From the NCBI GenBank assembly GCA_002793515.1, contig PFEU01000008.1:6824-70823 (forward strand): a DNA stretch of 64,000 nucleotides, given 5' to 3'. A program made the translations under genes and the position numbers. Shown here one piece after another: positions 33,875 to 56,528 of this stretch; the first letter of the stretch is position 1, and every line of letters starts with the position of its first letter. Below the pieces are notes generated by a model. It was not told where the DNA came from. It saw nothing but the letters and a program-made list of their open reading frames with translations, and made no database searches. The stretch is from Candidatus Uhrbacteria bacterium CG10_big_fil_rev_8_21_14_0_10_48_16. Its GTDB lineage: Bacteria > Patescibacteriota > Patescibacteriia > UBA9934 > GWF2-40-263.

Positions 33875-33923
33875 ATGGGCTTATTGTGTGCTATTTTCAG
33901 ATACGTGTAAAATACACCCATCT

Positions 33924-34886
33924 ATGACCTCACAAACCATTCTCATCACGGGAGGTGCCGGTTTTATTGGCTCACACCTCGCCAAACGGCTTATTGAAGA
34001 GGGTCATGAGGTTATTATTATTGATAACTTCAATCCCTATTACGATCCTTCTTTAAAGGAGGCTCGTATCTCTCACCTCCTGAAAGATCTTCCTTACACC
34101 TTGTATCGGATCGACCTCGAGGACTTTGAGGCGGTTCAAAAGGTATTTGAAACACACGCCATTGATTTGATTGCCCACCAAGCCGCACAAGCAGGTGTTC
34201 GATATTCGATCGAAAATCCGCTTGTCTATGGACAAAGTAATCTCATAGGAACACTCAACCTCCTGGAGCTTGCAAAGCAATACCATATAAAAGGATTCAT
34301 CCTTGCGTCGAGCTCGTCTGTATACGGAGACGCAACCTCCTTTCCCATCAAAGAAACTGACGAAACAGACAAGCCGATTTCGTTATACGCAGCGACAAAA
34401 AAATCCTGCGAACTTCTTGCCTACTCCTATCACCATCTCTTTGAACTCCCTGTGACATGTCTACGGTACTTCACGGTCTACGGACCTTGGGGACGGCCAG
34501 ACATGGCGATCTTTTCTTTTACCAAATCCGCTTTTGAAGGAACACCGATCGATGTGTATGGCCAAGGAGACATGGCGAGAGACTTCACCTTCATCGACGA
34601 TCTCGTCGATGGCATCGTAAAAGCTCTTGAAAAACAACTCCCATGGGCCGTCCTAAATCTTGGCCGTGGCCAAGCCCAACCACTCATGGACTTTATTACA
34701 TCCATCGAAACGCATTCTGGAAAATCCCTTCAAAAAAACTTTTTAGACATGCAACCTGGTGATGTCCAAAAAACCTGGGCGGATATCACTCAAGCGAAAA
34801 CCCTTCTTTCATTTGAACCCAAGACTTCCATCGATGAGGGAGTTCAATCCTTTGTGACGTGGTACAAAAATTTCTATGACGTCTAA
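33924..34886 (+). CDS. NAD-dependent nucleotide-sugar epimerase (UDP-glucuronate 4-epimerase / CapI-like SDR)
   Basis: ILITGGAGFIGSHLAKRLIEEGHEVIIIDNFNPYYDPSLKEARI, a YxxxK catalytic region (YAATKKSCE), and the overall extended-SDR layout. The ORF-track start at 33888 is GTG and has been trimmed to the ATG at 33924. Confidence 0.8.
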   Translation: MTSQTILITGGAGFIGSHLAKRLIEEGHEVIIIDNFNPYYDPSLKEARISHLLKDLPYTLYRIDLEDFEAVQKVFETHAIDLIAHQAAQAGVRYSIENPLVYGQSNLIGTLNLLELAKQYHIKGFILASSSSVYGDATSFPIKETDETDKPISLYAATKKSCELLAYSYHHLFELPVTCLRYFTVYGPWGRPDMAIFSFTKSAFEGTPIDVYGQGDMARDFTFIDDLVDGIVKALEKQLPWAVLNLGRGQAQPLMDFITSIETHSGKSLQKNFLDMQPGDVQKTWADITQAKTLLSFEPKTSIDEGVQSFVTWYKNFYDV

Positions 34887-39519: not shown

Positions 39520-40335
39520 ATGGCTGAATACGTGATCAAACCCAAACGCCCCATCGGTCTTCATCTCAAAGAAATATGGCGATTTCGTGAGTTATTCTTA
39601 GCACTCACCGTCCGAGACATGAAGGTTCGTTATAAGCAAACGGCCATTGGCGTCCTCTGGGCTGTATTTCAACCGTTCATTCTCATGGTTGTCTTTACGA
39701 TTTTCTTTGGTCGCATCGCACAAATAAGCACCAATGGTGTTCCCTACCCGATCTTTGTCTATAGTGGCTTGTTGTTCTGGAACTATTTTTCAAATGCCTT
39801 AAGCGCCGCAAGTGGAAGCATGGTCGCCAACCAAGCGATCATTCAGAAAATCTATTTTCCTCGTATCATTTTGCCCACAGCTTCTGTTGTGGTGTTTTTG
39901 TTAGATTTTATTTTTTCATCCATCATCTTTGCTGGCCTCCTGATTTACTATCACGTCACACCAAACATCACCGGCCTCTTATTATTAGTTCCCATGCTAC
40001 TCATTACCACCCTCACGCTTCTTGGCATCGGATTATTTTTTTCTGCTGTGAACGTCAAGTACCGTGATGTCCGCTATGTCCTTCCATTCTTTATTCAACT
40101 CCTTCTTTTTGTGACTCCGGTCATCTACCCAGCTACGATTTTAGGAGAATATAAATGGTTGCTCTACCTCAATCCCATGTCTGGAGTCATTGATGTCTTC
40201 CGAAGTACGTTTTTGTCACTTGGTTCTATTTCATGGCCCCTATTTGGAAGTTCGATTCTTGTAAGCATCATCTTTTTTCTTGTTGGTCTTGCCTACTTCC
40301 AAAAAACAGAACGCTATTTCGCTGATCTTATTTAG
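39520..40335 (+). CDS. wzm: ABC-2 type polysaccharide/O-antigen exporter permease (Wzm/TagG family)
   Basis: 271 aa, 6 TM. N-terminal cytoplasmic helix plus ABC2_membrane features (RDMKVRYKQTAIGVLWAVFQP…). Confidence 0.85.
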   Translation: MAEYVIKPKRPIGLHLKEIWRFRELFLALTVRDMKVRYKQTAIGVLWAVFQPFILMVVFTIFFGRIAQISTNGVPYPIFVYSGLLFWNYFSNALSAASGSMVANQAIIQKIYFPRIILPTASVVVFLLDFIFSSIIFAGLLIYYHVTPNITGLLLLVPMLLITTLTLLGIGLFFSAVNVKYRDVRYVLPFFIQLLLFVTPVIYPATILGEYKWLLYLNPMSGVIDVFRSTFLSLGSISWPLFGSSILVSIIFFLVGLAYFQKTERYFADLI

Positions 40336-40336
40336 T

Positions 40337-41596
40337 ATGGATCCTATCATTCGCGTCGAACATCTCGGAAAAAAATATCGGATCAAACATACGCAAAAAG
40401 GCTATGTTGCTCTGCGTGACGTGGTAGCAAACCTCTTTTCTTGGCGTTACTGGTTTCGTTCATCAAAAAAAGAACAGGAAGATTTTTGGGCTCTCCAAGA
40501 CGTGAACTTTGAAGTCCAAAAGGGCGAAGTCCTTGGAATTATTGGAGCAAACGGTGCTGGAAAATCGACCCTCCTAAAAATCTTGTCGAGCATCACCCCA
40601 CCTACGAACGGGGAAGTTCACATGAATGGACGAGTCATCAGTCTTTTGGAAGTAGGCACAGGGTTCCATCCAGAGTTAACGGGGCGTGAAAATATTTATC
40701 TCAACGGAGCCATCCTCGGAATGACACGCAAAGAAATTGAACAGAAATTCGATGCCATTGTTGCTTTCTCAGGAGTTGAAACGTTTTTAGATACTCCGGT
40801 AAAACGATTTAGTAGCGGAATGCAGGTTCGATTAGCATTTGCGGTTGCGGCACATTTAGAACCAGATATTTTGATCATCGACGAAGTTCTTGCCGTCGGT
40901 GATGCATCGTTTCAAAAAAAGTGTTTAGGAAAAATGGAGGAGGTCACAAAACAAGATGGCCGAACGATTTTATTTGTGAGCCACAACATGGATGCCATTG
41001 CGAAACTCTGCCAACGTTCGTTACTGCTTGATCATGGAAAGGTGATCGCAGACGGGCCAACAGATGACGTCATTGCGCGCTACCTAAACAACCACGAACA
41101 AACGCGAGCAGAGGTCACACTCACCCCTCCAGAGACTCTCGATATTGCCATCCGTTCTATCGCGATTAAGAATGACCGTGGAGCACTCTCAAATCGACTC
41201 GAGACAGGAAAACCCTTTACGATCGAAATTGAATACGAACTCAAAAAAGACGCGCATGAGGTCTATGCAGGGGTTGCGTTTATTGATCTAAAGACACAAA
41301 TTTCTGTCTTGGACACACTTGATATCGATCAAAATAAGGACCACTATCCCTTGCGAAAAAAGGGAATGTATCGTTCACTATTCACGTTTCAAGAAAATCC
41401 GTTTAATCACGGAAGATATAAGCTCTTTGTGCATATCGGATCTTTCCCTGCCACACAAACCACTCTTCATCTATCTGACGGCGATCTCACCATAACCTTC
41501 GTTTCAGGAGAAACCTTTGCGACAGATGTTCTCGATGGCACACGAAACTCAACCATGCTCCTCAACATTCCCAGTGAGATTATAAAAATTGGTTAA
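40337..41596 (+). CDS. wzt: Polysaccharide ABC exporter ATP-binding protein (Wzt/TagH) with a C-terminal carbohydrate-binding (Wzt_C-like) extension
   Basis: Walker A GANGAGKST, ABC signature FSSGMQVRLAFAVA, Walker B ILIIDEVLAVGD. Then a C-terminal extension of about 170 aa (…TLTPPETLDIAIRSIAIKNDRGA…YKLFVHIGSF…TITFVSGETFATDV) predicted to be a beta-sandwich. The ORF-track start at 40280 is TTG; the ATG is at 40337. Confidence 0.85.
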   Translation: MDPIIRVEHLGKKYRIKHTQKGYVALRDVVANLFSWRYWFRSSKKEQEDFWALQDVNFEVQKGEVLGIIGANGAGKSTLLKILSSITPPTNGEVHMNGRVISLLEVGTGFHPELTGRENIYLNGAILGMTRKEIEQKFDAIVAFSGVETFLDTPVKRFSSGMQVRLAFAVAAHLEPDILIIDEVLAVGDASFQKKCLGKMEEVTKQDGRTILFVSHNMDAIAKLCQRSLLLDHGKVIADGPTDDVIARYLNNHEQTRAEVTLTPPETLDIAIRSIAIKNDRGALSNRLETGKPFTIEIEYELKKDAHEVYAGVAFIDLKTQISVLDTLDIDQNKDHYPLRKKGMYRSLFTFQENPFNHGRYKLFVHIGSFPATQTTLHLSDGDLTITFVSGETFATDVLDGTRNSTMLLNIPSEIIKIG

Positions 41597-41601: not shown

Positions 41602-42651
41602 ATGTTTGAATTCGGAACATCAGAACACCTTGGAGATATTTCCTATTTTTATGGAAAGCCAATCGATATCACAAAACTAAAAGTAGATGTTCTTTCCGAC
41701 GTTCGTAAAAAACTACAAAATGTTGGAGACCAAATCAAAACGCTACAAACCACCTATCCAGCTGTCCAACAAACTAGCTGTTACATTTGCAAAGACTCTG
41801 CTTCTGTTCCCTGTGCGGAAGTTTATGGATTTACCTATGTACGCTGTGCAACTTGTGGACACACGTATACAACGGAACGTTATTCGGAACAGGACCTCTT
41901 AGATTTCTATAAAAACAGCACGTTCTATTCAACACAAACGTACGGAAACCCAGCGAGTCATCAGTACCGGATCGATCATGTGGCACGTCCAAAAATGGAG
42001 TTCCTGGAGTATTTTACAAAAGGAAAAGGTCGATTGCTGGATGGAGGTTCAGGAATTGGGGATATTCCTCTCGTGGCAAAACAATCCGGTTGGGATGCGA
42101 CCGGGATTGAAGTGAGCAAAGATTCTGTCCAGTTTGGAACAGAGCAATTAGGGGCACCTCTCCTCCAAGGATCTTTCATGGAACATCTTGACCTCATAGA
42201 AGAACGTGCACTAGACGCCGTTACGCTAATCGGGTTTCTAGAACACACCATTGATCCAATCCATTTCCTCCAGCAAGTTTATACAAAGATAAAACCTGGT
42301 GGACACATCATGATTCAAGTTCCAAGTGCAGATAGTTTTGCTTCAATGATTCAAGCATCCTTTCCGCAAAACGTTTTTCGACACATGGTTCCCATGGATC
42401 ACTACCAACTCTTTTCAAAGGATTCTTTAGATCGAGCCCTAGAACAAACAGGATATACGATTCGTGGATATTGGTTTCATGGATTGGATCTCTATGAACT
42501 CATGAATCACCTATCCATCATGCATCCGGAAAGTGCCGGAACCGATTCACCACTTTTTCAAACATTCTTAGAGCACATGGACAAGCTTCAACTCGTTATG
42601 GATCAAGCACAGAAGTCAGATCGCATTATCGTCGTTGCACAAAAAATATAA
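41602..42651 (+). CDS. SAM-dependent methyltransferase with N-terminal CxxC…CxxC zinc-ribbon (Methyltransf_13-like)
   Basis: SCYICKDSASVPCAEVYGFTYVRCATCGHTY, then LLDGGSGIGDIPLVAKQSGWDATGIEVS and IKPGGHIMIQVP methyltransferase motifs. Directly follows wzt. Confidence 0.75.
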   Translation: MFEFGTSEHLGDISYFYGKPIDITKLKVDVLSDVRKKLQNVGDQIKTLQTTYPAVQQTSCYICKDSASVPCAEVYGFTYVRCATCGHTYTTERYSEQDLLDFYKNSTFYSTQTYGNPASHQYRIDHVARPKMEFLEYFTKGKGRLLDGGSGIGDIPLVAKQSGWDATGIEVSKDSVQFGTEQLGAPLLQGSFMEHLDLIEERALDAVTLIGFLEHTIDPIHFLQQVYTKIKPGGHIMIQVPSADSFASMIQASFPQNVFRHMVPMDHYQLFSKDSLDRALEQTGYTIRGYWFHGLDLYELMNHLSIMHPESAGTDSPLFQTFLEHMDKLQLVMDQAQKSDRIIVVAQKI

Positions 42652-42666: not shown

Positions 42667-43725
42667 ATGCCTCACACACCCATTAAAATATTTGGAAAAA
42701 CGATTGGAGAAGGATATCCAACCTTTTTTATTGCAGAAATAGGATTGAACCACAATGGTTCCATGGACATCGCAAAACAGCTCATAGACGTAGCGGTCAA
42801 CGCCGGATGTGACGCCGTGAAGTTTCAAAAACGAGACATTGAGAGCTTGTCTGTTCGTTCTTTTCTTGATGCTCCTGACACGCGATTCCCTGAGTTTGGC
42901 TCCACCTATCGAGAGGTTCGTGAATTTGTTGAGTTCTCAGAAGAAGAGTTCACCGAACTAAAAAGGTATGCCCAAGAAAAAGAGATTCCATTTTTCGTCA
43001 CCCCTTTTGACATTCCCTCCGCGCAAATGCTCGCACGCATCGGGGTCGACGCCTATAAAAGTGCAAGTCATAATCTGACGCACATTCCTTTGTTGAAGCA
43101 TCTCATCGCCCAACAAAAGCCCATGATTGTTTCCACAGGAATGGCCATGCTTGAAGAGCTAGATCTTGCCGTGAATCTCCTTAAAGAATCCAACATCCCA
43201 TTTGTTTTACTCCATTGCGTCTCTTCCTACCCTACCGCACCTGAACTCATCAATCTCAAAACCATCGACTTTTTGCGAGAGCGCTACCAGGTTCCTGTTG
43301 GCTACTCGGGTCATGAAATGTTGGAAACCGAAAGCCTCCCAACCCTTTCAGCTGTCGCACGAGGTGCCTGTGTCGTAGAGCGTCACATCACTCTTGATCA
43401 CCACATGGTTGGGTTCGATCACAAAATTTCATTAACCCCCAATGAACTCCAGAAACTCATGGGGCAAATTCGTTCGATCGACAAAATGATGGGAACAGGC
43501 TTAAAAACGTTGTTACCGGAAGAACGAATCAAACGCGATCAACAACGTGTTTCCCTTGTTTCCTCTCGCAAAATCTCCGCAGGAGAAATCATCCAACCTG
43601 ATATGGTCTGTTTCAAAGGTCCTGGAACCGGTTTTGCCTGTTATGACCTGGATCAGATTGTGGGGAAATCAGCTATCACAGATATCGACGAAGACACCCT
43701 ATTCCAGGCTGAAATGTTTAACTGA
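42667..43725 (+). CDS. neuB: Nonulosonic acid (sialic-acid-like) synthase, NeuB/PseI/LegI family
   Basis: IGEGYPTFFIAEIGLNHNGSMDIAKQLIDVAVNAGCDAVKFQKR, a TIM-barrel NeuB signature, plus a C-terminal SAF domain (…GPGTGFACYDLDQIVGKSAITDIDEDTLFQAEMF). Confidence 0.9.
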   Translation: MPHTPIKIFGKTIGEGYPTFFIAEIGLNHNGSMDIAKQLIDVAVNAGCDAVKFQKRDIESLSVRSFLDAPDTRFPEFGSTYREVREFVEFSEEEFTELKRYAQEKEIPFFVTPFDIPSAQMLARIGVDAYKSASHNLTHIPLLKHLIAQQKPMIVSTGMAMLEELDLAVNLLKESNIPFVLLHCVSSYPTAPELINLKTIDFLRERYQVPVGYSGHEMLETESLPTLSAVARGACVVERHITLDHHMVGFDHKISLTPNELQKLMGQIRSIDKMMGTGLKTLLPEERIKRDQQRVSLVSSRKISAGEIIQPDMVCFKGPGTGFACYDLDQIVGKSAITDIDEDTLFQAEMFN

Positions 43726-43734
43726 ATTACAGGT

Positions 43735-44487
43735 ATGAATGTCACAAAAAGGCAATTTAGCCCGGGAGTCGTTGAAAAGGTAGATGCAATCCGCCAAGAG
43801 ATGGTATCGCGATATGAAATGCCCCTTGAGCGCACTACACACGTACACCTGCAGTGCGAGAAAATTTTATCAACACAACAGAAACCAGGTGTCGTCGTGC
43901 AATGCGGAGTATGGAAAGGAGCGAGCCTTTTTGCTGCCGCCCTCTTCTGTCAGAATGAAAAAATTCAAAAGCAGATATTCGGATTTGATACATTCACAGG
44001 ATTTCCCAATAAACAGATTGACCCGCACGACCACCCCAGCTATTTCAAGACTCTTTTGGACAGCAACCTTATAACCAAAGAACACTATGAAAAAGCTGCA
44101 ATCCGGACCAAGAACTTCACTGACCTTGCGCATCTTACCAATGAGCATTTTTTAGATATCGGAGAAGTTTTTGATCGAGTCGCAGAATTTGAAAACATCA
44201 AACTTATTAAGGGTACGTTTGCAGAAACCCTGCCACATTTCCAGGAACCAATCGCTGTTCTCTATATTGACTGCGATATCTACCAAGGATATAAGGAAAT
44301 TTTGAATAATCTCTATGACCTGGTGGTCGATGAAGGAGCGATAGTTTTTGATGAATATTACTCACTGAAATATCCGGGCGCCCGTGCAGCGGTGAATGAT
44401 TTTTTTCAAGACAAAAAAGGTCATTTTGAGGTATACACCACCGACGATCGTTTTGAGCGCTGGTGCTTTATAAAGAGCAGTAAATAA
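43735..44487 (+). CDS. TylF/MycF-family sugar O-methyltransferase
   Basis: GVVVQCGVWKGASLFAAALF…LYIDCDIYQGYKEILNNLYDLVVDEGAIVFDEY is the macrocin-O-methyltransferase family pattern. Confidence 0.7.
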   Translation: MNVTKRQFSPGVVEKVDAIRQEMVSRYEMPLERTTHVHLQCEKILSTQQKPGVVVQCGVWKGASLFAAALFCQNEKIQKQIFGFDTFTGFPNKQIDPHDHPSYFKTLLDSNLITKEHYEKAAIRTKNFTDLAHLTNEHFLDIGEVFDRVAEFENIKLIKGTFAETLPHFQEPIAVLYIDCDIYQGYKEILNNLYDLVVDEGAIVFDEYYSLKYPGARAAVNDFFQDKKGHFEVYTTDDRFERWCFIKSSK

Positions 44488-44529
44488 AACGTAATGGAAA
44501 CCCAGCTTGTCATTAACATCGGATAATAT

Positions 44530-45252
44530 ATGAACACGTCAGATTCGGGTCCCCGCATTTTAGCGATTACGCTCGCACGTGGTGGAAGTAAAAGTGTGCC
44601 AAGAAAAAATATTCGCCCGCTTCTTGGGAAACCGATGATTGCGTATACCATCGAAGAAGCGCTGAAGTCGAAATTCATCACACACTACGTCGTCTCAACA
44701 GAAGATAAAGAGATTGCAGACGTAGCAAAAACATACGGAGCGGATGTTCCTTTTTTGCGTCCAGAGGAACTCGCCACAGACACAAGTGCGTCAAAACCCT
44801 GCTTGCAACATGCAACAGCCTATATGGAAGATCAATTGGGTCGCCCCTTTGATTACGTTGTGGAACTCATGGCAACGAACCCACTAAAAACCGTAGAAGA
44901 TATTGACACCGCATTAGAAAAGTTAATCTCAACAGGAGCTGACTCTGTCATTGGTGTCATTCAAATTCACGATCAGCATCCATTACGTGTGAAAAAGATC
45001 GTCGATGACAAACTTGTCGACTTTTGTTTACCAGAACCCAATGAGGCGCGACGGCAAGATCTACAACCTGATGCATTTTTGCGAAATGGTTCTATCTACG
45101 CGATGAAACGTGATGTGCTCATGATTCAAGATCGACGATATGGAACAGAAAACTCGCGCCCGTATATTTTCAGTCCTGAACGCTCGGTCAATGTGGATTC
45201 ATTAGAAGACTGGTATCTTGCAGAGATGCGCCTAAAAAATCGGCAATCGTAA
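44530..45252 (+). CDS. neuA: CMP-nonulosonic acid synthetase (acylneuraminate cytidylyltransferase family, NeuA/PseF/LegF-like)
   Basis: ILAITLARGGSKSVPRKNIRPLLGKPMIAYTIEEALKS is the CTP_transf_3 N-terminal signature. Confidence 0.85.
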   Translation: MNTSDSGPRILAITLARGGSKSVPRKNIRPLLGKPMIAYTIEEALKSKFITHYVVSTEDKEIADVAKTYGADVPFLRPEELATDTSASKPCLQHATAYMEDQLGRPFDYVVELMATNPLKTVEDIDTALEKLISTGADSVIGVIQIHDQHPLRVKKIVDDKLVDFCLPEPNEARRQDLQPDAFLRNGSIYAMKRDVLMIQDRRYGTENSRPYIFSPERSVNVDSLEDWYLAEMRLKNRQS

Positions 45253-45257
45253 CCTCT

Positions 45258-46199
45258 ATGAACATCCTTTGTCTCACACCCATTAAGCACCTTTCGGGGG
45301 TGTTTGAACTCCTTTCTTCATACGGATCTGTTGACTACCAACCGGAATTCACGAAGGAACAGCTGATGGACTACCTGAAAGCGCATCAGGATGTTGATGC
45401 GCTCTTTGTAAATCCAAATAAGCAAAACTATAAACTTGACGCAGAAATTCTTGCTGGAAGTTCCGTCACATTGATCAATACCGCGTCAACTGGACTCAAC
45501 CATATTGATGTTGCTTGGTGTAAAAGACAAAACATTAACATCCTTTCGTTAACCGAAGACCACGAGCTCATCAAACGTCTTCCTTCTACATCAGAACTTG
45601 CCTTCGGTTTAATGCTTTCACTCCTTCGTCATATTCCCTCTTCCTTTGACGCGGTGAAGCGTGGCGCATGGGACTACGAACCCTTTATCGGTCATCAAAT
45701 TGAAGGTCTTACCGCCGGAATCGTTGGTTATGGACGCCTCGGAACATTCATGGCAAAGTACTGTCACGCGTTTGGGATGCGGGTCCTCGTCACAGATCCG
45801 TACAATCCTGTGTACGGATTCGATCGAGTCTCCCTAGAGGAACTCGCGCAAGAATCTGATGTCATCTCCTTACATGTTCACGTCACAGATGAAACCAGAC
45901 ACATGATCAACGCCTCCTTTATTTCAGCCACACAGAAAAGTCCGTATCTGATTAATACGTCACGAGGAGAAATTGTCGATGAACAAGCCGTGCTTGAGGG
46001 GTTGCAATCAGGAAAACTCCGAGGCTACGGAACGGATGTGATCGAAGACGAATTTGGAAATCGTGCGGAAAGTCCTATTATCCAAGCGGCACATTCTGAT
46101 CTGAATGTGCTCATCACCCCCCATACCGGTGGAATGACCTGGGAAGGTCAACAACGCGCCTACACATGGGCCGTCGAAAAGTTTAATCCTCTTTCTTGA
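45258..46199 (+). CDS. D-isomer-specific 2-hydroxyacid dehydrogenase family NAD-binding oxidoreductase
   Basis: GIVGYGRLGTFMAKYCHAFGMRVLVTDPY Rossmann motif, and the catalytic region …NTSRGEIVDEQAVLEGLQSGKLRGYGTDV…HTGG. Confidence 0.8.
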   Translation: MNILCLTPIKHLSGVFELLSSYGSVDYQPEFTKEQLMDYLKAHQDVDALFVNPNKQNYKLDAEILAGSSVTLINTASTGLNHIDVAWCKRQNINILSLTEDHELIKRLPSTSELAFGLMLSLLRHIPSSFDAVKRGAWDYEPFIGHQIEGLTAGIVGYGRLGTFMAKYCHAFGMRVLVTDPYNPVYGFDRVSLEELAQESDVISLHVHVTDETRHMINASFISATQKSPYLINTSRGEIVDEQAVLEGLQSGKLRGYGTDVIEDEFGNRAESPIIQAAHSDLNVLITPHTGGMTWEGQQRAYTWAVEKFNPLS

Positions 46200-46208: not shown

Positions 46209-46853
46209 ATGAGTAAGCTTTCCGTGATTATTCGATGTCGAGATGAAGAACGCTGGATTGGGCACGCCATCCAATCGGTATTAGATTTTGTTGACGATCC
46301 AGAAATTTTAGTCATCAACAACAAGTCAAAAGATGATTCGCTGTTGATCGTTCGACAATTCGCAGGATTCGATACGGTCCGCGTCTTAGACATTGATGAT
46401 TATTCCCCTGGAAAGGCTCTTAACTTGGGCGTCCAAGAAGCAACGAGTGACCTCATTCTCGTTCTCTCAGCACATTGTGTCTTGAAAAAATTCGATCTCC
46501 CAAACATCGCGAAAGCCCTCTCTACACACAAAGCAGTTTTTGGAAAACAACATCCAATCTACCAAGGACGAAAGATCACTCCACGATATCTCTGGGCAAA
46601 CTTTCATGACAGAGAAGAAGAGAATGCGTATTCAAAACTCGAGGACCGACTCTTCTTACATAATGGGATGTGTGTGTACCGGCGCGACATCCTTCTCGAA
46701 CATCCTTTTGACGAACAGCTTGCCGGAAAAGAAGATCGCTACTGGGCGCGCGATATCGTAAAAGCGGGATATACCTATCTCTACAGCCCATCCCTCATGG
46801 AATGTGATCACCATTGGACCACAGACGGAAATACGTGGAAAGGAATAGGGTAA
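46209..46853 (+). CDS. Glycosyltransferase family 2-like (short, 214 aa)
   Basis: LSVIIRCRDEERWIGHAIQSVLDFV…ILVINNKSKDDSLLIVRQF matches the GT-A N-terminal nucleotide-binding pattern. The DxD equivalent is LDIDDYSPG. Confidence 0.6.
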   Translation: MSKLSVIIRCRDEERWIGHAIQSVLDFVDDPEILVINNKSKDDSLLIVRQFAGFDTVRVLDIDDYSPGKALNLGVQEATSDLILVLSAHCVLKKFDLPNIAKALSTHKAVFGKQHPIYQGRKITPRYLWANFHDREEENAYSKLEDRLFLHNGMCVYRRDILLEHPFDEQLAGKEDRYWARDIVKAGYTYLYSPSLMECDHHWTTDGNTWKGIG

Positions 46854-46858
46854 TTTCT

Positions 46859-47698
46859 ATGCGCGACGATATTTGTGTATTGCTGACTTCAGCAATCGAA
46901 GTCAAAAATAAACATCTCGTGAAGCGCCATGACACCGCGACACGTCTTGAGGATTACAAACGCGCCCTACGTAGCTGGCTCACAAAACAAACGCACGTTC
47001 AACACATCGTCTTTGTCGATAACTCTGGATATCCTCTGGATACACTCAAGCACATCGCTGAGACAGAAAACGTTCATGGAAAACACGTAGAATTCCTTTC
47101 CTTCCACTATGACACCACCGGTGATAGCGATATTAGCTTAGGCGAAATCGCTATTTTGGATTATGCCCTCAATCACTCACAAACTCTGAAGAACACATCC
47201 TATTTTATCAAGTGTACGGGAAGAGTATTTGTTGAGAATATCGATCATATTGTCCAAGATCTCCCTGAAACATTTCATGCCGTCGCTCGGTTTTCTGAAA
47301 ACCTAAGTTACATTGATAGCGTGATCATGATTTTCGAGACGCACATGTACCGCGAAGACATGCACCCTCTGATTGCACAAACCATGAAACAGCCAAATGG
47401 AAAAACAGATTTTGAACGCGCCTACGCCAAAGTCCTTCATGAACTCTTAGCGAAAGACTACCAATGGTTTCCGTTCAGTCACGAACCTATTTTCTCAGGA
47501 ATGTCTGGAACAAAAAATCAGTCGTATAGAAAAAAATACGGTCGATTCCAATCTCTCTGGTACTCCGTCATCTCACATATGTTTTACAAACGTTATAGAA
47601 CAAGCTGGGGAAAAAGCTCAGGTCGCGAACATTTGCTCGTCCGTTGGAACATTCAGCCTGAACGAGGAACTTGCTCATCGAATAAAGATTCTCTCTAA
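46859..47698 (+). CDS. Hypothetical protein (possible uncharacterised glycosyltransferase-like)
   Basis: 279 aa from the ATG at 46859; the ORF-track start at 46814 is TTG. Has …HIVFVDNSGYPLD… but no motif I can assign confidently. Confidence 0.45.
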   Translation: MRDDICVLLTSAIEVKNKHLVKRHDTATRLEDYKRALRSWLTKQTHVQHIVFVDNSGYPLDTLKHIAETENVHGKHVEFLSFHYDTTGDSDISLGEIAILDYALNHSQTLKNTSYFIKCTGRVFVENIDHIVQDLPETFHAVARFSENLSYIDSVIMIFETHMYREDMHPLIAQTMKQPNGKTDFERAYAKVLHELLAKDYQWFPFSHEPIFSGMSGTKNQSYRKKYGRFQSLWYSVISHMFYKRYRTSWGKSSGREHLLVRWNIQPERGTCSSNKDSL

Positions 47699-47706: not shown

Positions 47707-48708
47707 ATGTCAGAACACTCAAAAAAACGTGCACTCATTACCGGAATTACCGGACAAGATGGAAGCTATCTTGCTGAATTTTTATTGGAACAGGGATATG
47801 AAGTGCATGGCATCATGCGCCGTTCCTCCACCTTTAACACCTGGCGCATCGAACATCTCTACGGGAGTGAGGACTTCTCTCATCCAAAAAATGACTTCCA
47901 TCTCCATTACGGAGATCTGACCGATGCCATGAGCATTGCTGCCATCATCAAGCAGGTTCAGCCAGATGAAATCTATAATCTTGCTGCCATGAGCCATGTG
48001 CGTGTGTCATTCGATGTTCCAAAATTTACCCTTGAAACAAATACGCTTGGAGCCCTAAACATTTTGGAATACATCCGTCACCACGCACCACACATCAAGT
48101 ATTATCAAGCTTCAAGTTCCGAAATGTTTGGAGCGACAACGGATGCTCCTCCCTTTAATGAGCATACGCGATTCATGCCACAGAGCCCGTACGGCATTTC
48201 AAAACTAGCCTCGTTTCATCTCACAAGACATTACCGAAACAGCTATGGTCTCTTTGCAGTAAATGGAATTCTCTTCAATCACGAAAGTCCTCGCCGTGGA
48301 GAAACGTTTGTGACTCGCAAAATTACTCGTGCCGTTGCCTCCATTCTTGCAGGAGAAATGGATACCCTCTACATGGGGAATCTTGATGCCGTCCGAGACT
48401 GGGGACATTCAAAAGATTATGTCCGAGCGATTCACCTGATGCTCCAACAAGAGGCTCCTGATGAATATGTCGTCGCAACCGGAGAAGCTCACTCCATCAA
48501 AGAAGCTCTGCAATATTGTTTTGAGGAGGCGGGTCTTGATTGGACACAGTATGTAAAGATTGATCCAAAGTACTTCCGCCCAAGCGAAGTCCCCTATCTC
48601 CAAGGAGACTCACGCAAGATTCGAGCGATTGGGTGGGAACCGGAATACAACTGGAAAACACTTCTTAAAGAAATGCTCGAGGAAGATATTAGACGTTCAC
48701 AAAAATAG
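47707..48708 (+). CDS. gmd: GDP-mannose 4,6-dehydratase
   Basis: KRALITGITGQDGSYLAEFLLEQGYEVHGIMRRSSTFNTWRIEHLY…, YxxxK (YGISKLAS), and the full Gmd architecture. Confidence 0.95.
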   Translation: MSEHSKKRALITGITGQDGSYLAEFLLEQGYEVHGIMRRSSTFNTWRIEHLYGSEDFSHPKNDFHLHYGDLTDAMSIAAIIKQVQPDEIYNLAAMSHVRVSFDVPKFTLETNTLGALNILEYIRHHAPHIKYYQASSSEMFGATTDAPPFNEHTRFMPQSPYGISKLASFHLTRHYRNSYGLFAVNGILFNHESPRRGETFVTRKITRAVASILAGEMDTLYMGNLDAVRDWGHSKDYVRAIHLMLQQEAPDEYVVATGEAHSIKEALQYCFEEAGLDWTQYVKIDPKYFRPSEVPYLQGDSRKIRAIGWEPEYNWKTLLKEMLEEDIRRSQK

Positions 48709-48711
48709 TGT

Positions 48712-49098
48712 ATGAAATCTATTGAAAAAGACGGAGTCCTCATCGCGATTCACTTTGACGGAACATTTACCGAAGGTACCCAACCGCAAACAGACGAAGG
48801 ATTTCCCCTCCAGGTTCTTTCCTTGAAGCACCCAAAGGGAAAAATTCTTTTGGCGCATGCTCACACCCCACGTGATCGAACCACACACGAACTCATGGAA
48901 TGTCTCGTCGTGTTATCTGGGCGCATCCTTGCCAACATTTTTCATGAAAACGAACTCTTTGAATCAATCGAGATGGGACCTAAGGAAGCACTGATGCTTG
49001 TCCGCGGTGGAGTCGGGTATGAAATACTAGAAGACGCGGAAATGATGGAGTTTAAAAATGGCCCCTACCTGGAAGACAAATCGCTCATCAACGCATAA
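48712..49098 (+). CDS. WxcM/FdtA-like cupin (putative NDP-4-keto-6-deoxyhexose 3,4-ketoisomerase or epimerase)
   Basis: 128 aa. LAHAHTPRDRTTHELMECLVVLSGRI fits the FdtA-type cupin HxH…E…CL.G pattern. Gene position is immediately 3' of gmd. Confidence 0.5.
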   Translation: MKSIEKDGVLIAIHFDGTFTEGTQPQTDEGFPLQVLSLKHPKGKILLAHAHTPRDRTTHELMECLVVLSGRILANIFHENELFESIEMGPKEALMLVRGGVGYEILEDAEMMEFKNGPYLEDKSLINA

Positions 49099-49099
49099 T

Positions 49100-49675
49100 A
49101 TGACCGATGAATCTTCTCCCTCAACGCAACCGGTTCAACTGCATCTAGGATGTGGAAAACGTTTCATTCCAGGCTTCGTACATATCGATCTTGCCGTTTT
49201 TGAACACATTGATTACACCCACCGGATCGATCAACTCCCCATGATCGAAACCCAGTCTGTGGACCTGATCTATGCCTGTCACGCATTCGAATATTTCGAC
49301 CGAGTGGAAGCTGTCACCGTTCTTCAAGAATGGGGACGTGTCCTTAAGCCAGGAGGGATCCTGCGATTAGCTGTTCCAGACTTTGCCTCGCTCATAGAGG
49401 TCTATCAGACCTACGGAGAACTTGGGCGAGTTATCGGTCCCCTCTTTGGAAGATGGCCCATTCCAGGAACAACAGAGACGGTCTACCACAAAACGGTTTA
49501 TGATTTTCATGACCTTCAAACCCTTCTCACCACAAATGGATTCGAACAGGTTCAACGCTATGACGCCCGCAAGACCTCGCATGCGCAGTATGATGACTAT
49601 GCGCAAGCCTATGTTCCCCACATGGATCAAAACGGCATATTAGTCAGCTTGAATGTGGAAGCACAGAAAATATAA
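49100..49675 (+). CDS. Class I SAM-dependent methyltransferase
   Basis: LHLGCGKRFIPGFVHIDL…LKPGGILRLAVPDF. Start chosen at the ATG at 49100, 1 nt after the upstream stop; the ORF-track start at 49058 overlaps the upstream gene. Confidence 0.65.
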   Translation: MTDESSPSTQPVQLHLGCGKRFIPGFVHIDLAVFEHIDYTHRIDQLPMIETQSVDLIYACHAFEYFDRVEAVTVLQEWGRVLKPGGILRLAVPDFASLIEVYQTYGELGRVIGPLFGRWPIPGTTETVYHKTVYDFHDLQTLLTTNGFEQVQRYDARKTSHAQYDDYAQAYVPHMDQNGILVSLNVEAQKI

Positions 49676-49688
49676 GATCGACATCTCT

Positions 49689-50453
49689 ATGGAACGAACA
49701 GAAAAAAAGACCGTTGAAGAGGTTGTGTCTCATGGAAACATCGACGCACAATACGTCCTAGATCATCCCGAGATGTTCCATGAGAAATCCATCCGCACAG
49801 CAAAGCAACACGCACAGCGCTATCAATTTGCAAAACGCTTTGTCAAAGACAAACACGTGTTAGACATCGCTTGTGGAACAGGTTATGGATCTCGGATTCT
49901 TGATGTGCACTCCTACGCAAGCTATATCGGAGTTGATATCGATCCAGATTCGATCGAACTCGCAAAAGAACGTTACGCGCCAAACAATCCGCGCGCCGTT
50001 TTTTTTACGGATGATGCAACCTCTTTACGGCACACGCCCATTCCTTCTGAATCCATAGACGTGGCTATTTCTTTTGAAACCATTGAGCACACTCCCTTCT
50101 ACAGAGATTTTTTAAAACACATGCATGATAAACTGAAGAAGGATGGACTGTTTATCGTCTCTACCCCGAATCGAGATGTTACCCATCCTGGAACAGATTT
50201 TTCTCACAAACCCACCTGGGACTTTCATACCCAAGAATGGGTCCTTGAAGAATTTTTAGCGTTGTTGGATGAAGAAAAATTCTCTCCCGTGCAGATCTAT
50301 GCGCAATCGTTCCGTGCCCACAAACTGTTCGGCTTCAACATTCCAGGTCTTGGAAGAATCCTCAGACATCTTTCTCTAACCGTTGTCCCATGGAACCTCT
50401 TTCGGTTTTTCGGGAAAGCAAATTTTTATATTCTGGTATGCAAAAAGAAGTAA
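49689..50453 (+). CDS. Class I SAM-dependent methyltransferase
   Basis: VLDIACGTGYGSRILD…AISFETIEHT…DGLFIVSTPN. An alternative in-frame ATG lies at 49653. Confidence 0.65.
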   Translation: MERTEKKTVEEVVSHGNIDAQYVLDHPEMFHEKSIRTAKQHAQRYQFAKRFVKDKHVLDIACGTGYGSRILDVHSYASYIGVDIDPDSIELAKERYAPNNPRAVFFTDDATSLRHTPIPSESIDVAISFETIEHTPFYRDFLKHMHDKLKKDGLFIVSTPNRDVTHPGTDFSHKPTWDFHTQEWVLEEFLALLDEEKFSPVQIYAQSFRAHKLFGFNIPGLGRILRHLSLTVVPWNLFRFFGKANFYILVCKKK

Positions 50454-51541
50454 CGCCATTCATTCCACAAACAGCTCCTTCCTACGGACACAAAGAGCGA
50501 GAAGCCATCGATCTGTATTTACAGTCCAATGCCTGGCTCACAGAATTTGAAAAAACCATTGCTTTTGAACAAGAGATCGCGAAACGCGCAACGACGACCT
50601 ACGCCAGCGTCGTCCCCAATGGAACAATTGCCCTTTTTCTGGCATTCACCGCACTCGGAATCAAAAAAGGAGACGAGGTCATCGTTCCAAATCTCACCAT
50701 GATCGCGACCCCAAATGCCGTACAGCTGGCCGGTGGAACACCTGTTTTCGCGGACGTGGATTCAGAGAGTCTTTGTCTCAATCCCGATGAAGTAGCCCGT
50801 CTCATCACTCCACGCACAAAAGCGGTTTGTCACGTATCTCTCGGAGGTCGCGTAGGACGCATGGAATCTCTTATGGAGTTGTGCCGTGAAAAAGGCATTC
50901 CCCTGGTCGAAGATGCCGCTCAAGCATTTGGATCATCCCATCGGGGGAAACCGGTTGGGTCCTTTGGGGACATCGGGATTTATTCTTTCACCCCACACAA
51001 AATCATCACGACCGGCCAAGGTGGAGCCCTTGTCACCAACCGAGAAGATCTCTATCAAGCGATCGAGCGGTTAAAGGACTTTGGGCGATTACAAGGAGGA
51101 GGTGATCACCACGATCATCTTGGTTGGAATTTTAAGTTCACAGATCTTCAGGCGGTCCTGGGTCTGGTACAGCTCGAAAATTTGGATGAACGCATCGACA
51201 AAAAACGAGAAATTTTTGCTCACTATCAATCGCAACTCACAGACGTTCCGGGAGTGACAATGCTTCACACGAATCTCGAGGAAACAACACCCTGGTTTAT
51301 CGAAGTCTTTGTTGAAAAGCCTCTTGCACTTGCATCGTTTTTGAAAGAGCAAGGGATTGGTACTCGTCCCATGTATCCAGCAATCCATACCCAACCTATC
51401 TACGCGCACATCCAAGGCGAATTTCCTGTAAGCACACACGCAGGAGCTCATGGACTCTGGCTTCCCTCCTCTTTGTCCCTGACCCCATCTGAGATCACGC
51501 GCATCTGTAATGCGGTAAAAGAGTTCCTTCGTTTTGTATGA
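50438..51541 (+). CDS. DegT/DnrJ/EryC1/StrS-family PLP-dependent nucleotide-sugar aminotransferase
   Basis: Conserved TPFIPQ…; the internal-aldimine Lys lies in SFTPHKIITTGQGGALV; overall fold-type I layout. Confidence 0.9.
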   Translation: MQKEVTPFIPQTAPSYGHKEREAIDLYLQSNAWLTEFEKTIAFEQEIAKRATTTYASVVPNGTIALFLAFTALGIKKGDEVIVPNLTMIATPNAVQLAGGTPVFADVDSESLCLNPDEVARLITPRTKAVCHVSLGGRVGRMESLMELCREKGIPLVEDAAQAFGSSHRGKPVGSFGDIGIYSFTPHKIITTGQGGALVTNREDLYQAIERLKDFGRLQGGGDHHDHLGWNFKFTDLQAVLGLVQLENLDERIDKKREIFAHYQSQLTDVPGVTMLHTNLEETTPWFIEVFVEKPLALASFLKEQGIGTRPMYPAIHTQPIYAHIQGEFPVSTHAGAHGLWLPSSLSLTPSEITRICNAVKEFLRFV

Positions 51542-55703: not shown

Positions 55704-56528
55704 ATGTCTATCAGCGTAATCATGTCCGTCTATAATGGCGAACGGTTTCTCCGTGACGCTGTGTTAAGTGTGCTCGATCAAACCTTTCACGATATTGAAT
55801 TGCTTGTCATCGATGATGCTTCAACGGATGGAACACTCCACCTCCTCGAGGAACTCGCCTCACGTGACTCCCGCATCCGCATCCTCACCAACTCGACGAA
55901 CCTGGGACTTACTAAGTCACTCAACCGTGCCCTTATGCACGCTCAAGGAGAGTTTATCGCCCGGCTGGACGCTGACGACATCGCCTTCCCTTCCCGACTC
56001 GAGAAACAACTCGCCTTCCTTGCCTCACATCCTGACATCGACATCGTGGGTACCGCCTACGAGTGGATCGACGAGCACGGCAACGTCATCGGTCGCCCAA
56101 ACGTCATCACCGACCCAGACGACATCCACCGGACGTTCCCACGCACCAACCCGCTCCTTCACAGCTCAGTCCTGATGCGCAGACACCTCCTTGATTCCAC
56201 AGGAGGATACGATGCGTCCTACAAAAAAGCCCAGGACTACGCGCTGTGGTTAAGACTTGCCCCCACCCACCGATTTGCAAATCTCCCTGAGATTCTCACA
56301 CAAAAACGTCTCAGCAAAGACATGCTCTCCTATGCGAGTGAGCGAAGTCAGCTTCGGTTCGCCGTCCGAGCACGCTATGAGGCACTTAGGCGCGGAGACT
56401 ACCCAATGTGGTATTTTATCTACATCTTGAAGCCGTTCATCGCCTCCATCCTTCCACGTGCTGTTGTTCGATGGATTCGGATTCACCTCTTTCATCAACG
56501 TCAGTATGAGCATCCAACCCTTCGATAA
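55704..56528 (+). CDS. Glycosyltransferase family 2
   Basis: MSISVIMSVYNGERFLRDAVLSVLDQTFHDIELLVIDDASTDGT…ARLDADDIAFPSRL is a classic GT-A/DxD signature. Confidence 0.85.
   Translation: MSISVIMSVYNGERFLRDAVLSVLDQTFHDIELLVIDDASTDGTLHLLEELASRDSRIRILTNSTNLGLTKSLNRALMHAQGEFIARLDADDIAFPSRLEKQLAFLASHPDIDIVGTAYEWIDEHGNVIGRPNVITDPDDIHRTFPRTNPLLHSSVLMRRHLLDSTGGYDASYKKAQDYALWLRLAPTHRFANLPEILTQKRLSKDMLSYASERSQLRFAVRARYEALRRGDYPMWYFIYILKPFIASILPRAVVRWIRIHLFHQRQYEHPTLR

Follow-up and report, generated by a model that had tools for sequence, protein, structure and literature searches.

A recurrent NeuB-like synthase cassette in an ABC-transporter-dependent glycan cluster of Candidatus Uhrbacteria, putatively for a non-aminated, O-methylated ulosonic acid

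In Candidatus Uhrbacteria, a member of the CPR, a cassette built around a NeuB-like synthase lies within an ABC-transporter-dependent glycan cluster, directly after genes for Wzm and for a Wzt with a carbohydrate-binding domain (CBD). With slightly better than even confidence, we favour a reading in which this cassette makes a CMP-activated, non-aminated and O-methylated ulosonic acid, which the small glycosyltransferase GT2s transfers, possibly as an export cap. Such a product is the most economical explanation of the divergence of the synthase, the absence of linked amino-sugar genes and the recurrence of methyltransferases.

Organization of the operon and its glycan cluster

Four genes form one tight operon on the plus strand, with intergenic gaps of 5-42 nt, and a consensus scan detected no terminator-like sites in the gaps among them. 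They encode a NeuB-family PEP-condensing ulosonate synthase with a SAF domain (42667-43725, 352 aa, 'KFQKR/SGHE' type; Pfam NeuB 245.9 bits, E=5e-73), a TylF/MycF/NovP-type sugar O-methyltransferase (43735-44487, 250 aa; Pfam TylF 80.4 bits, E=1.7e-22), a NeuA-like CMP-ulosonate synthetase (CTPt; 44530-45252, 240 aa; CTP_transf_3 89.5 bits) and a D-2-hydroxyacid dehydrogenase family enzyme (HADH; 45258-46199, 313 aa; Pfam 2-Hacid_dh_C 165.9 bits). The Pfam E-values are far beyond chance, and the identities and positions of these four genes agree with a preliminary description of this DNA. As a unit the four genes were too narrow a choice, since the following gene, GT2s (46209-46853, plus strand, 214 aa; Pfam GT2 71 bits), a small DxD-less GT-A/GT2 enzyme, is conserved with the cassette in related loci and belongs to it as well.

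Three more plus-strand genes are probably part of the cassette. The operon's first gene encodes a short-chain dehydrogenase/reductase (SDR; 33888-34886), which resembles UDP-glucuronate 4-epimerases by its PDB relatives (5u4q, 338 bits; Bacillus cereus UDP-GlcA 4-epimerase 6zl6, 206 bits; MoeE5, 151 bits). Between wzt and the synthase gene lies a methyltransferase with an N-terminal four-Cys motif (Zn-ribbon) (41602-42651; Methyltransf_23 76.8 bits). ORF 46859 (46859-47698, 279 aa from the gene callers' ATG) has no Pfam or NCBIfam match and gave a single-sequence AF2 model with a pLDDT of 39, too low for use; it accompanies the cassette in its nearest relatives. A homologue with 41% identity directly follows a GT2s::TylF fusion in locus L009, and another comes after HADH in L096.

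Immediately upstream of the cassette, here and in L009, are the ABC-2 permease Wzm (39520-40335, plus strand; ABC2_membrane 68 bits), with a 64% identical counterpart at the same position in L009, and the ATPase Wzt with its C-terminal CBD (40280-41596, plus strand, gene callers' start 40337; ABC_tran 89 bits, Wzt_C 38.5 bits). The best PDB match of Wzt is the full-length Aquifex aeolicus protein (255 bits), the alignment extending into the CBD. Further downstream on the same strand, a Wzy_C and TPR protein resembles O-antigen ligases and O-oligosaccharyltransferases (56458-58428; Wzy_C 72.8 bits, TPR repeats). An initiating phosphoglycosyl transferase (Bac_transf 224 bits) is encoded divergently from the operon at 32567-33874 on the minus strand, and the cluster holds five further methyltransferases and several other glycosyltransferases.

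Among the ORFs scanned in the window, i.e. the whole 64-kb stretch of DNA analysed, none matched a Polysacc_synt_2/PseB-type or LegB dehydratase, an Epimerase_2 enzyme (NeuC/LegG/PseG-like) or a hexapeptide acetyltransferase, which bears out the lack of nearby dehydratase, acetyltransferase and hydrolysing epimerase noted earlier. The sole aminotransferase among the scanned ORFs, a DegT enzyme (50390-51541; DegT 325 bits), adjoins Gmd, also as previously described. It is part of a separate plus-strand branch (47707-51541) comprising Gmd, a 128-aa ORF with a cupin HxH...E motif seen by eye, two methyltransferases and the DegT enzyme. With 458.8 bits against TIGR01472 (cutoff 415) the Gmd is a true one, and the branch appears to be a GDP-6-deoxy-amino-sugar route in its own right.

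A separate synthase clade and a cassette that recurs across phyla

Model scores place the synthase outside both the NeuB/LegI and the PseI equivalogs: it reaches 308.8 bits with TIGR03569 (NeuB/LegI; cutoff 399.65) and 214.4 bits with the PseI model (cutoff 340.25). Metal and PEP residues are retained, and both N-acetyl contacts of NmNeuB are lost (F288→Q292, R314→G318); classical paralogues in the same loci keep the arginine. Beside the sugar-binding Gln, Lys55/Arg56 stand in place of Thr/His. In a distance-based neighbour-joining tree, drawn from a locus set picked by sequence pattern, the HADH-linked synthases are monophyletic and form their own clade (bootstrap 83/100). The phylogenetic placement proposed in the preliminary description yields no firm position among Pse or Leg synthases, an outcome that would have spoken for a conventional pathway.

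CTPt carries the canonical 'ARGGSKSVPRKN' motif, visible in its sequence. Its best PDB relatives are CMP-Neu5Ac synthetases (116 bits, KdsB 32 bits); with the PseF model it scores 162.8 bits (cutoff 205.7) and with KdsB models at most 50 bits. In the HADH family alignment an Arg236/Glu265/His289 triad is invariant, and HADH reached no NCBIfam equivalog cutoff, PGDH being the best (170 bits against 454). A protein identical to HADH is recorded from Candidatus Uhrbacteria. CTPt lies within 7 kb of HADH in 83 of the 97 HADH loci, at a median offset of 0.9 kb, which is the next gene. Homologues of CTPt adjoining HADH in related loci are 42-83% identical, and NeuB::CTPt fusions occur. A fusion of NeuB to a phosphoglycerate-dehydrogenase domain has been described in Leptospira santarosai (PMC4758666). 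Together with the neighbourhood of CTPt in the 83 loci, this fusion argues that HADH is not accessory.

The combination of synthase, CTPt, HADH and GT2s is also found in Leptospira rfb loci, Elusimicrobiota, Omnitrophota, Magnetococcales, Bacteriovorax and numerous marine contigs; in the marine ones a DAHP-synthase-like enzyme can stand in the NeuB slot. Being so widespread, the cassette is not peculiar to the Uhrbacteria genome. A synthase is present in 70 of the 97 HADH loci, and GT2s follows the synthase; every locus with a NeuB at least 46% identical has a GT2s homologue and, except for one short (1.8 kb) contig, CTPt and HADH as well. The Elusimicrobiota locus L176, which carries a NeuB::CTPt fusion, has HADH and a GT2, both predicted beforehand, and also TylF. 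Besides the cassette it contains a full set of Leg-type genes, and this coexistence indicates that the two are distinct systems.

A close counterpart is the uncharacterised NeuB-GT2-CTPt-HADH block of Leptospira rfb (O-antigen) loci, which shares a near-identical gene order beside an ABC exporter and identities of 62% (NeuB), 62% (CTPt), 43% (HADH), 32% (GT2), 46% (SDR) and 43% (methyltransferase). It differs in that the Leptospira GT2 has an extra degenerate NeuA-like domain, TylF is absent and an MsbA-like exporter takes the place of Wzm/Wzt. MsbA-like ABC exporters also adjoin the cassette in L010 and L176.

Proposed transfer and methylation, and a possible export cap

GT2s is a candidate CMP-ulosonate transferase. 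Its DxD motif is replaced by S87-x-H89, and S-x-H is invariant among its homologues, which are 50-57% identical across metagenomes. The AF2 model (pLDDT 93.6) finds as its top Foldseek match WrtF, a metal-independent GT-A enzyme of an ABC-dependent O-polysaccharide. In related loci GT2s stands directly 3' of the synthase. Relatives of about 440 aa have an extra degenerate NeuA-like domain (PDB NeuA E=1.9e-13; hhalign 98.4%). Alternatively, GT2s might hydrolyse an NDP-sugar instead of transferring a residue, a functional counterpart of PseG that frees the aldose on which the synthase acts; TylF would have methylated the NDP-sugar beforehand, in the manner of CalS11. GT2s always neighbours the synthase, and its strong conservation is typical for precursor enzymes; the identity of its homologues is unusually high for a polymer-acting transferase, and a precursor-pathway enzyme fits it equally well. 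Another ORF, e.g. 46859-47698, could moreover be the real transferase, and CalS11, an NDP-sugar methyltransferase, is among the TylF relatives. However, the NeuA-like domain fusions indicate a CMP-sugar/ulosonate ligand instead of an NDP-hexose and the absent DxD suits a monophosphate donor, and we regard a hydrolase as quite unlikely.

Known TylF-type enzymes act on antibiotic 6-deoxyhexoses or TDP-rhamnose, and none is known to act on an ulosonic acid. The Uhrbacteria TylF is above the Pfam cutoff and has NovP, CalS11 and MycF as its closest solved structures, but unlike these it is linked to GT2s, to which it is fused in L009. In L176, TylF adjoins HADH, and Leptospira and marine loci have other methyltransferases beside the cassette. 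Homologues of methyltransferase 41602 (39-43% identical) are found just downstream of HADH in the Leptospira locus L007, with one methyltransferase gene between, and directly after HADH in the Bacteriovorax locus L016. The earlier suggestion of an O-methylated nonulosonate holds in part: the recurrence of methyltransferases beside the cassette across phyla, the absence of linked amino-sugar genes and the lost N-acetyl contacts speak for it, and the stage at which the methyl group would be added is a matter of inference.

Known Kdo caps depend on housekeeping CMP-Kdo and a GT99 transferase of the WbbB type, whereas Uhrbacteria, which belongs to the CPR, a group that to our knowledge lacks LPS, has a dedicated sugar pathway and, as candidate transferase, a small GT2 without DxD. 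Non-reducing-end export caps include methyl groups and Kdo, documented cases being beta-Kdo with a cap-binding Wzt CBD and the 3-O-methyl-mannose/rhamnose of A. aeolicus (PMC9445017). In common with ABC-dependent O-polysaccharide caps, Wzm and Wzt-CBD genes lie directly beside ulosonic-acid and O-methylation genes. Alternatively, a methylated neutral sugar could form the cap, and the ulosonic acid could occupy an internal or side-chain position.

The nature of the putative ulosonic acid

A conventional Pse, Leg or Neu5Ac pathway, with its missing genes elsewhere in the genome and HADH, TylF and GT2s as unrelated neighbours, is very unlikely. In its favour, NeuB and NeuA homologies are clear, the window covers just 64 kb of the genome, and the DegT enzyme shows LegC- and PseC-like similarity (245 and 224 bits, both below the cutoffs of these models). 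LegBCHGIF, PseBCHGIF and NeuCBA use the same synthase and cytidylyltransferase superfamilies for PEP condensation and then CMP activation, but the cassette has no linked dehydratase, aminotransferase, acetyltransferase or hydrolysing epimerase. Its synthase falls below both equivalog cutoffs, lies in a separate clade and retains neither N-acetyl contact, whereas the classical paralogues keep the arginine; HADH and GT2s co-occur with that clade across phyla, and the Leg-type set of L176 stands beside the cassette. A plain Kdn (2-keto-3-deoxy-D-glycero-D-galacto-nononic acid) pathway, from mannose or mannose-6-phosphate and PEP via Kdn to an O-methylated CMP-Kdn, with HADH accessory or unrelated, is possible but doubtful. 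It shares with the cassette a NeuB-family synthase, a CMP-transferase that is NeuA-like and not KdsB-like, and the absence of amino-sugar tailoring genes expected for a non-aminated product; polar residues replace the N-acetyl pocket, Gmd brings GDP-mannose metabolism into the operon, and the 'KFQK...GYSGHE' motifs of the synthase resemble animal-type sialate/Kdn-9-phosphate synthases. The Kdn route of Bacteroides thetaiotaomicron consists of Kdn-9-P synthase, phosphatase and CMP-Kdn synthetase, whereas the operon has no phosphatase, and its obligatory partners HADH, which is not accessory, and GT2s have no Kdn counterpart. The DAHP-synthase-like enzyme of some relatives is also hard to square with a fixed mannose substrate.

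A dicarboxylic 3-deoxy-ulosaric acid, in which a uronic acid gives the second carboxylate and HADH acts on the distal-end alpha-hydroxy acid, seems unlikely; the carboxylate would come from UDP-GalA here or, in marine loci, from later oxidation by a truncated Ugd-like enzyme. No other scheme offers a D-2-hydroxyacid dehydrogenase a substrate that makes chemical sense. The SDR of the operon shares the motifs 'FTVYGPWGRPDMA' and 'GDV..TWAD' with 46-50% identical SDRs that immediately precede NeuB in L007 and L010, and a 42% identical homologue (tblastn) has the same position in L016. Downstream of GT2s, 26 marine loci have a truncated NDP-sugar 6-dehydrogenase, WbpB/E/D/I-like genes, whose Pfam domains suggest a mannuronic-acid route, occur in some marine loci, and a galactarate/talarate-dehydratase-like enzyme adjoins HADH in L010 and L177; Lys55/Arg56 of the synthase likewise fit. 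Against it, the support is contextual throughout, cassette loci L011 and L013-L015 have no SDR homologue, known NeuB substrates have a manno configuration that GalA does not share, and UDP-GalA may merely supply a GalA residue of the polymer. We know of no dicarboxylic 3-deoxy-ulosaric sugar reported from bacteria. It is highly improbable that Gmd, cupin, DegT and methyltransferases feed the synthase with a GDP-mannose-derived amino-dideoxy-mannose, giving a 5-hydroxy, 7-amino, 9-deoxy nonulosonic acid, a Leg/Kdn hybrid. In its favour, the genes form an unbroken stretch of the same operon, the manno configuration would need no 2-epimerase and the lost 2-acetamido contacts suit a 2-OH sugar. 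However, Gmd homologues (48-51% identity) were found only in two distant loci, both without HADH, the Gmd-DegT pair in no HADH-clade locus, and L009 carries RmlA/RmlB in place of the branch.

For the favoured non-aminated, O-methylated product, the synthase would condense PEP with an aldose lacking a 2-acetamido group to a 3-deoxy-2-ulosonic acid, probably nine-carbon and either Kdn-like or uronate-derived. CTPt would convert it to the CMP-sugar, HADH may contribute an additional redox step tightly coupled to this activation, TylF would O-methylate the sugar and GT2s would use the CMP-sugar as donor. The CBD of Wzt may recognise the sugar as an export cap, after which the Wzy_C/TPR enzyme would link the glycan to an acceptor on the surface. 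The cassette, which Uhrbacteria shares with the O-antigen loci of Leptospira and with many marine microbes, would represent an uncharacterised route for making and attaching a non-aminated, methylated, sialic-acid-like acidic sugar.

Organisation of the glycan cluster

An uninterrupted run of open reading frames (ORFs) extends on the plus strand from 33888 to about 59533 and represents an ABC-transporter-dependent glycan cluster. A Bac_transf initiating transferase (32567-33874, minus strand) is divergent from it. The operon begins with an SDR protein resembling UDP-GlcA-4-epimerases (33888-34886, plus; 338 bits to 5u4q and 206 bits to BcUGAepi), followed on the same strand by GT4 glycosyltransferases and methyltransferases, the permease Wzm (39520-40335; ABC2_membrane), the ATPase Wzt (40280-41596; ABC_tran) with a Wzt_C carbohydrate-binding domain (38.5 bits vs. 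30.4) and a methyltransferase (41602-42651). The four ORFs of the preliminary description come next, at exactly the coordinates it had given: a NeuB-family synthase with SAF domain (42667-43725), a TylF-type methyltransferase (43735-44487), a CTP_transf_3 cytidylyltransferase (CTPt, 44530-45252) and a D-2-hydroxyacid dehydrogenase (HADH, 45258-46199), all on the plus strand. The gaps among them measure 5-42 nt and contain no terminator-like site in a consensus scan, whose promoter and terminator signals overall did not exceed shuffled controls. Directly downstream are a small GT2 glycosyltransferase of 214 aa (GT2s, 46209-46853, plus) and an ORF of no recognised family (46859-47698, plus), for which single-sequence AF2 gave an unusable model (pLDDT 39).

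The plus-strand genes from 47707 to 51541 encode Gmd, a cupin-looking ORF, two methyltransferases and a DegT aminotransferase. Gmd is a true Gmd (TIGR01472, 459 bits vs. a cutoff of 415), and the 128-aa ORF carries a cupin-like HxH...E motif. Together these genes resemble a self-sufficient pathway for a methylated GDP-amino-dideoxyhexose. Further plus-strand glycosyltransferases lead to a ligase-like protein with Wzy_C fused to TPR repeats (56458-58428, plus); a second Wzy_C (O-antigen-ligase-like) protein is encoded at 1992-3260 (minus). An identical NeuB was found on 21 metagenome contigs with unchanged gene order, and NCBI assigns a protein identical to HADH to a Candidatus Uhrbacteria bacterium. 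The absence of the usual pathway genes nearby, pointed out previously, was confirmed, as the scanned ORFs of the window include no PseB/LegB-type dehydratase, no Epimerase_2 and no hexapeptide acetyltransferase.

The opening 22 kb of the window hold housekeeping or surface-protein genes. In this part, a 766-aa protein with FG-GAP and MopE-type metal-binding repeats (15962-18262, plus) lies in an island of 62% GC in a window of about 45% GC, for which foreign origin or a strong repeat-driven compositional bias are possible explanations. The glycan cluster is adjoined by a 2124-aa ORF and, following it, three proteins in which cohesin, dockerin and bacterial TSP3 domains occur (22730-32472, minus). 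They may constitute a cellulosome-like surface scaffold in a genome of the candidate phyla radiation (CPR), and are possible acceptors of the glycan. ARAGORN detected a tRNA-Ile with anticodon UAU at 61861-61937 (minus); this tRNA is uncommon in bacteria, where AUA is usually read by a modified CAU tRNA.

The enzymes and their families

The synthase belongs to the NeuB family PF03102 (245.9 bits vs. a gathering threshold of 22.1). In the alignment with NmNeuB (1XUU), all metal and PEP residues are kept: E24, K52, Q54, T112, K131, S134, S156, Y188, S214, H216, H240 and D251 correspond to NmNeuB E25, K53, Q55, T110, K129, S132, S154, Y186, S213, H215, H236 and D247. NmNeuB Phe288 and Arg314, which we take from the 1XUZ work to contact the 2-acetamido group of the substrate, are replaced by Gln292 and Gly318. 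The whole clade of the synthase shows Q/K and G/N at these two positions, and classical NeuB paralogues in two of the related loci, the Bacteriovorax locus L016 and locus L079, retain the Arg. Moreover, the KHQTH motif of NmNeuB reads KFQKR in the synthase. Scores stayed below the equivalog cutoffs for NeuB/LegI (TIGR03569, NeuB_NnaB; 308.8 vs. 399.65 bits) and PseI (TIGR03586; 214.4 vs. 340.25 bits), and in a neighbour-joining tree the long HADH-linked NeuBs are monophyletic (83/100 bootstrap). HMM cutoffs, active-site residues and tree led us to reject a Pse, Leg or Neu placement; a firm position in the Pse or Leg clade, which the preliminary description had named, together with a find of the missing genes elsewhere in the genome, as incompatible with its reading, was looked for and not found.

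Concerning the precursor pathways, the sole candidate SDR scored 33.8 bits with the PseB model (cutoff 407.75), and neither PseC, PseH or PseG equivalogs nor a NeuC/LegG-type epimerase or a LegB-level dehydratase were present among the scanned ORFs of the window. A Kdn pathway would call for a Kdn-9-P phosphatase of the HAD type beside the synthase, with mannose or Man-6-P as substrate; there is no HAD phosphatase in the operon, and a small HAD gene was seen in only seven marine loci. In L020, L030 and about 15 other loci, which belong to Chloroflexota and further phyla, KFQKR-type NeuBs of about 630 aa are joined to an AP_endonuc_2 domain (a xylose-isomerase-like TIM barrel); this domain may act as an internal sugar isomerase that provides the aldose.

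CTPt is a member of CTP_transf_3 (NeuA/PseF/LegF/KdsB; 89.5 bits vs. a threshold of 22.6) and has the N-terminal CTP-binding motif ARGGSKSVPRKN, of the canonical ARGGSK..KN type. Its score with CMP-Neu5Ac synthetase (NeuA) structures, 116 bits, far exceeds the 32 bits reached with KdsB. It was rejected as a PseF equivalog (162.8 bits, below 205.7) and as a KdsB equivalog (at most 50 bits vs. cutoffs of 155-281). The TylF protein scores above the PF05711 threshold (80.4 bits vs. 23), and its top PDB matches NovP, CalS11 and MycF are sugar O-methyltransferases, the activity predicted for it here.

HADH carries both 2HADH Pfam domains (165.9 and 38.9 bits), and its Arg-Glu-His triad (R236, E265, H289) is invariant in 25 homologues. 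None of 21 models, including those for SerA, GhrA/B, PdxB, LdhD and VanH, came near its equivalog cutoff; the best subfamily model was PGDH with 170 bits vs. 454. By these scores HADH appears to fall outside every characterised 2HADH subfamily.

Even between highly diverse sources, GT2s sequences are 50-57% identical, and an invariant Ser-x-His takes the place of the DxD motif. The confident AF2 model of GT2s (pLDDT 93.6) is a GT-A fold. Among solved structures, Foldseek placed it nearest to WrtF; this metal-independent transferase belongs to an ABC-dependent O-polysaccharide. The other neighbours were generic GT-A/GT2 structures and gave no ligand-specific clue. In a library of 1.8 billion proteins most GT2s relatives are two-domain proteins of about 440 aa, a large family that includes the protein encoded at 11057-12382 of the Leptospira locus L007 and those with the handles P0384-P0429. 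In these proteins the C-terminal half is NeuA-like but degenerate, and has lost the CTP-binding motif. This domain was recognised with a profile (E=1.9e-13 vs. PDB NeuA; 98.4% in hhalign vs. the window CTPt), whereas single-sequence phmmer with the domain of the Leptospira protein against PDB gave no match.

A conserved cassette in related loci

Among named NeuB homologues, those of Leptospira come closest (62% identity); there the chromosomal order is ABC exporter, SDR, NeuB, GT2, CTPt, HADH and two methyltransferases. In L009, which carries a 73%-identical relative, Wzm and Wzt (with Wzt_C) are followed by NeuB, CTPt, HADH, a GT2::TylF fusion and a homologue of ORF 46859-47698. When the window proteins were compared with 90 loci by tblastn, every locus with a NeuB of at least 46% identity (Leptospira, Omnitrophota, Magnetococcales, Bacteriovorax, Planctomycetia) contained a homologue of the small GT2, and all of these except one short contig (1.8 kb) also contained CTPt and HADH. 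More distant NeuB loci usually have CTPt alone. Homologues of the SDR at 33888-34886 (42-50%) lie directly 5' of NeuB in three loci. The methyltransferase at 41602-42651 has homologues (39-43%) just 3' of HADH in two loci, immediately adjacent in Bacteriovorax L016 and separated by one methyltransferase gene in Leptospira L007. The conserved unit therefore exceeds the four genes recognised previously.

We predicted that an Elusimicrobiota NeuB::CTPt fusion would adjoin HADH and GT2, and this was borne out in locus L176, where a TylF gene is also beside HADH. The order at L176 1-17806 is PhyH, GT2, NeuB::CTPt, HADH, TylF, methyltransferase, LIC12162 and ABC exporter. A complete canonical legionaminic-type set (CTPt::NeuB, Epimerase_2, PglD-like, NTP_transferase-CBS) is found alongside, so that this cluster appears to hold two separate ulosonate pathways. 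A PhyH-family dioxygenase and LIC12162, a new Pfam family of about 610 aa, are found repeatedly alongside the cassette in loci of Elusimicrobiota and of Leptospira-like type (L007, L010, L176, L177); neither was detected in the window.

Marine metagenomes abound in HADH homologues of 53-57% identity. We clustered the neighbours of 97 HADH loci with a required coverage of 75%, which keeps fusion proteins from chaining the NeuB, TylF, CTPt and GT2 families together. In 83 of the 97 loci CTPt is no more than 7 kb away from HADH, at a median offset of 0.9 kb, i.e. as the next gene; the synthase is present in 70, with a small GT2 directly 3' of it. In marine loci GT2s often precedes an SDR gene and one for a truncated, Ugd-like NDP-sugar 6-dehydrogenase. 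In the marine loci L091-L175 the HADH-CTPt pair is followed, in the same slot, by a short NeuB or a DAHP-synthase-like enzyme. The latter, of type Iβ (TIGR01361, 238 bits vs. 268), fills the synthase slot in about half of the HADH loci. The exchange is one of non-orthologous displacement, which argues that what the partner enzymes act on is generic to a 3-deoxy-2-ulosonic acid. L091-L175 also contain TOD1_MUCI70 genes, sialyltransferase-like genes of GT29 and extended stretches of tiny ORFs, suggesting that they derive from large viruses or phages. Isolated phages searched with marine HADH gave only SerA-like matches of about 30% identity, from which we infer that the cassette occurs in no known phage.

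Taken together, these genes appear to be part of a widespread, conserved and uncharacterised ulosonic-acid cassette with two seemingly obligatory extra enzymes, HADH and GT2s, located in a CPR glycan cluster that probably exports capped chains. In L. santarosai, Fouts et al. (PMC4758666) report a fusion between NeuB and a phosphoglycerate-dehydrogenase domain. We found no published description of the cassette in the literature on NeuB/2-hydroxyacid dehydrogenase/cytidylyltransferase clusters, on 2HADH classification, on Vibrionaceae nab clusters or on heptulosaric-acid biosynthesis, nor in SugarBase or with PDB 8I5Z.

Possible product and role

The substrate of HADH, as of any 2HADH, must be an alpha-hydroxy or alpha-keto acid, and C2 of a CMP-ulosonate is unusable by these enzymes. 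Reduction of the ulosonate at C2 before activation was rejected, because a reduced C2 gives no glycosyl donor. The only natural substrate would be offered by a second carboxylate at the distal end of the sugar. That the sugar is such an ulosaric acid on which HADH acts is rather unlikely in our estimate, even though several hints from gene context point this way: the UDP-GlcA-4-epimerase-like SDR of the operon, whose homologues adjoin NeuB in other lineages, the truncated sugar 6-dehydrogenase of marine loci, WbpB/E/D/I-like genes in some marine loci (as read from Pfam domains) and a galactarate/talarate-dehydratase-like enzyme in L010 and L177. A route from the DAHP-synthase-like variant to 3-deoxy-D-lyxo-heptulosaric acid (Dha) was set aside, since the stereochemistry of DAH is arabino and a change at C6 does not yield lyxo.

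For GT2s, a role as NDP-sugar hydrolase analogous to PseG is possible, in line with its strong conservation and its position next to the synthase. The NeuA-like domain of its relatives and the GT2s::TylF fusion connect it with methylation and with either the CMP-sugar or the ulosonate itself, which favours a dedicated transferase. With GT2s as this putative transferase, the complete proposal would be a previously undescribed class of CMP-sugar, a methylated 3-deoxy-ulosaric (dicarboxylic) acid made from a uronic acid, with HADH remodelling its distal alpha-hydroxy-acid end and a new DxD-less GT-A family transferring it. As a whole we consider it improbable. The more general chemistry of a non-aminated, O-methylated sugar with an unusual redox step, close to that of the preliminary description, is a reasonable hypothesis.

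To our knowledge, CPR bacteria make no LPS and would have no housekeeping CMP-Kdo pathway. Wzm and a Wzt with C-terminal carbohydrate-binding domain form the gene set expected of cap-dependent ABC export, and the best PDB match of the window Wzt is the full-length A. aeolicus protein including this domain. ABC-exported O-polysaccharides are capped by methyl or phosphomethyl groups or by a unique sugar such as Kdo, which are read by the carbohydrate-binding domain of Wzt (PMC9445017). The cassette is directly 3' of wzt in the window and in L009, and beside other ABC exporters elsewhere. This adjacency, the linkage to methyltransferases and the presumed lack of CMP-Kdo to draw on make an export cap read by Wzt the most attractive role for the putative methylated ulosonate. 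It is equally possible that the cap is just a methyl group carried by a neutral sugar, as the cluster contains five further methyltransferases.

Ulosonic acids, the nonulosonic ones included, are major determinants on cell surfaces in immune evasion, phage recognition and serotyping, and we know of only a handful of understood pathways (Neu, Leg, Pse, Kdn, Kdo and a few epimers). The cassette ranges from Leptospira O-antigen loci and Elusimicrobiota to CPR bacteria and very abundant marine contigs. Leptospira O-antigen loci determine the serovar in a neglected zoonosis. If the ulosaric reading were true, the same chemistry would underlie part of the Leptospira O-antigen diversity, a CPR surface glycan and abundant, possibly viral, marine glycans. 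Definition of the product would enlarge the known repertoire by one sugar and one transferase family, account for a block of the Leptospira rfb loci that has no assignment and provide the first defined surface-sugar pathway of a CPR organism. Should the cap idea hold, it would also widen the range of export signals that the carbohydrate-binding domains of Wzt proteins are known to read.
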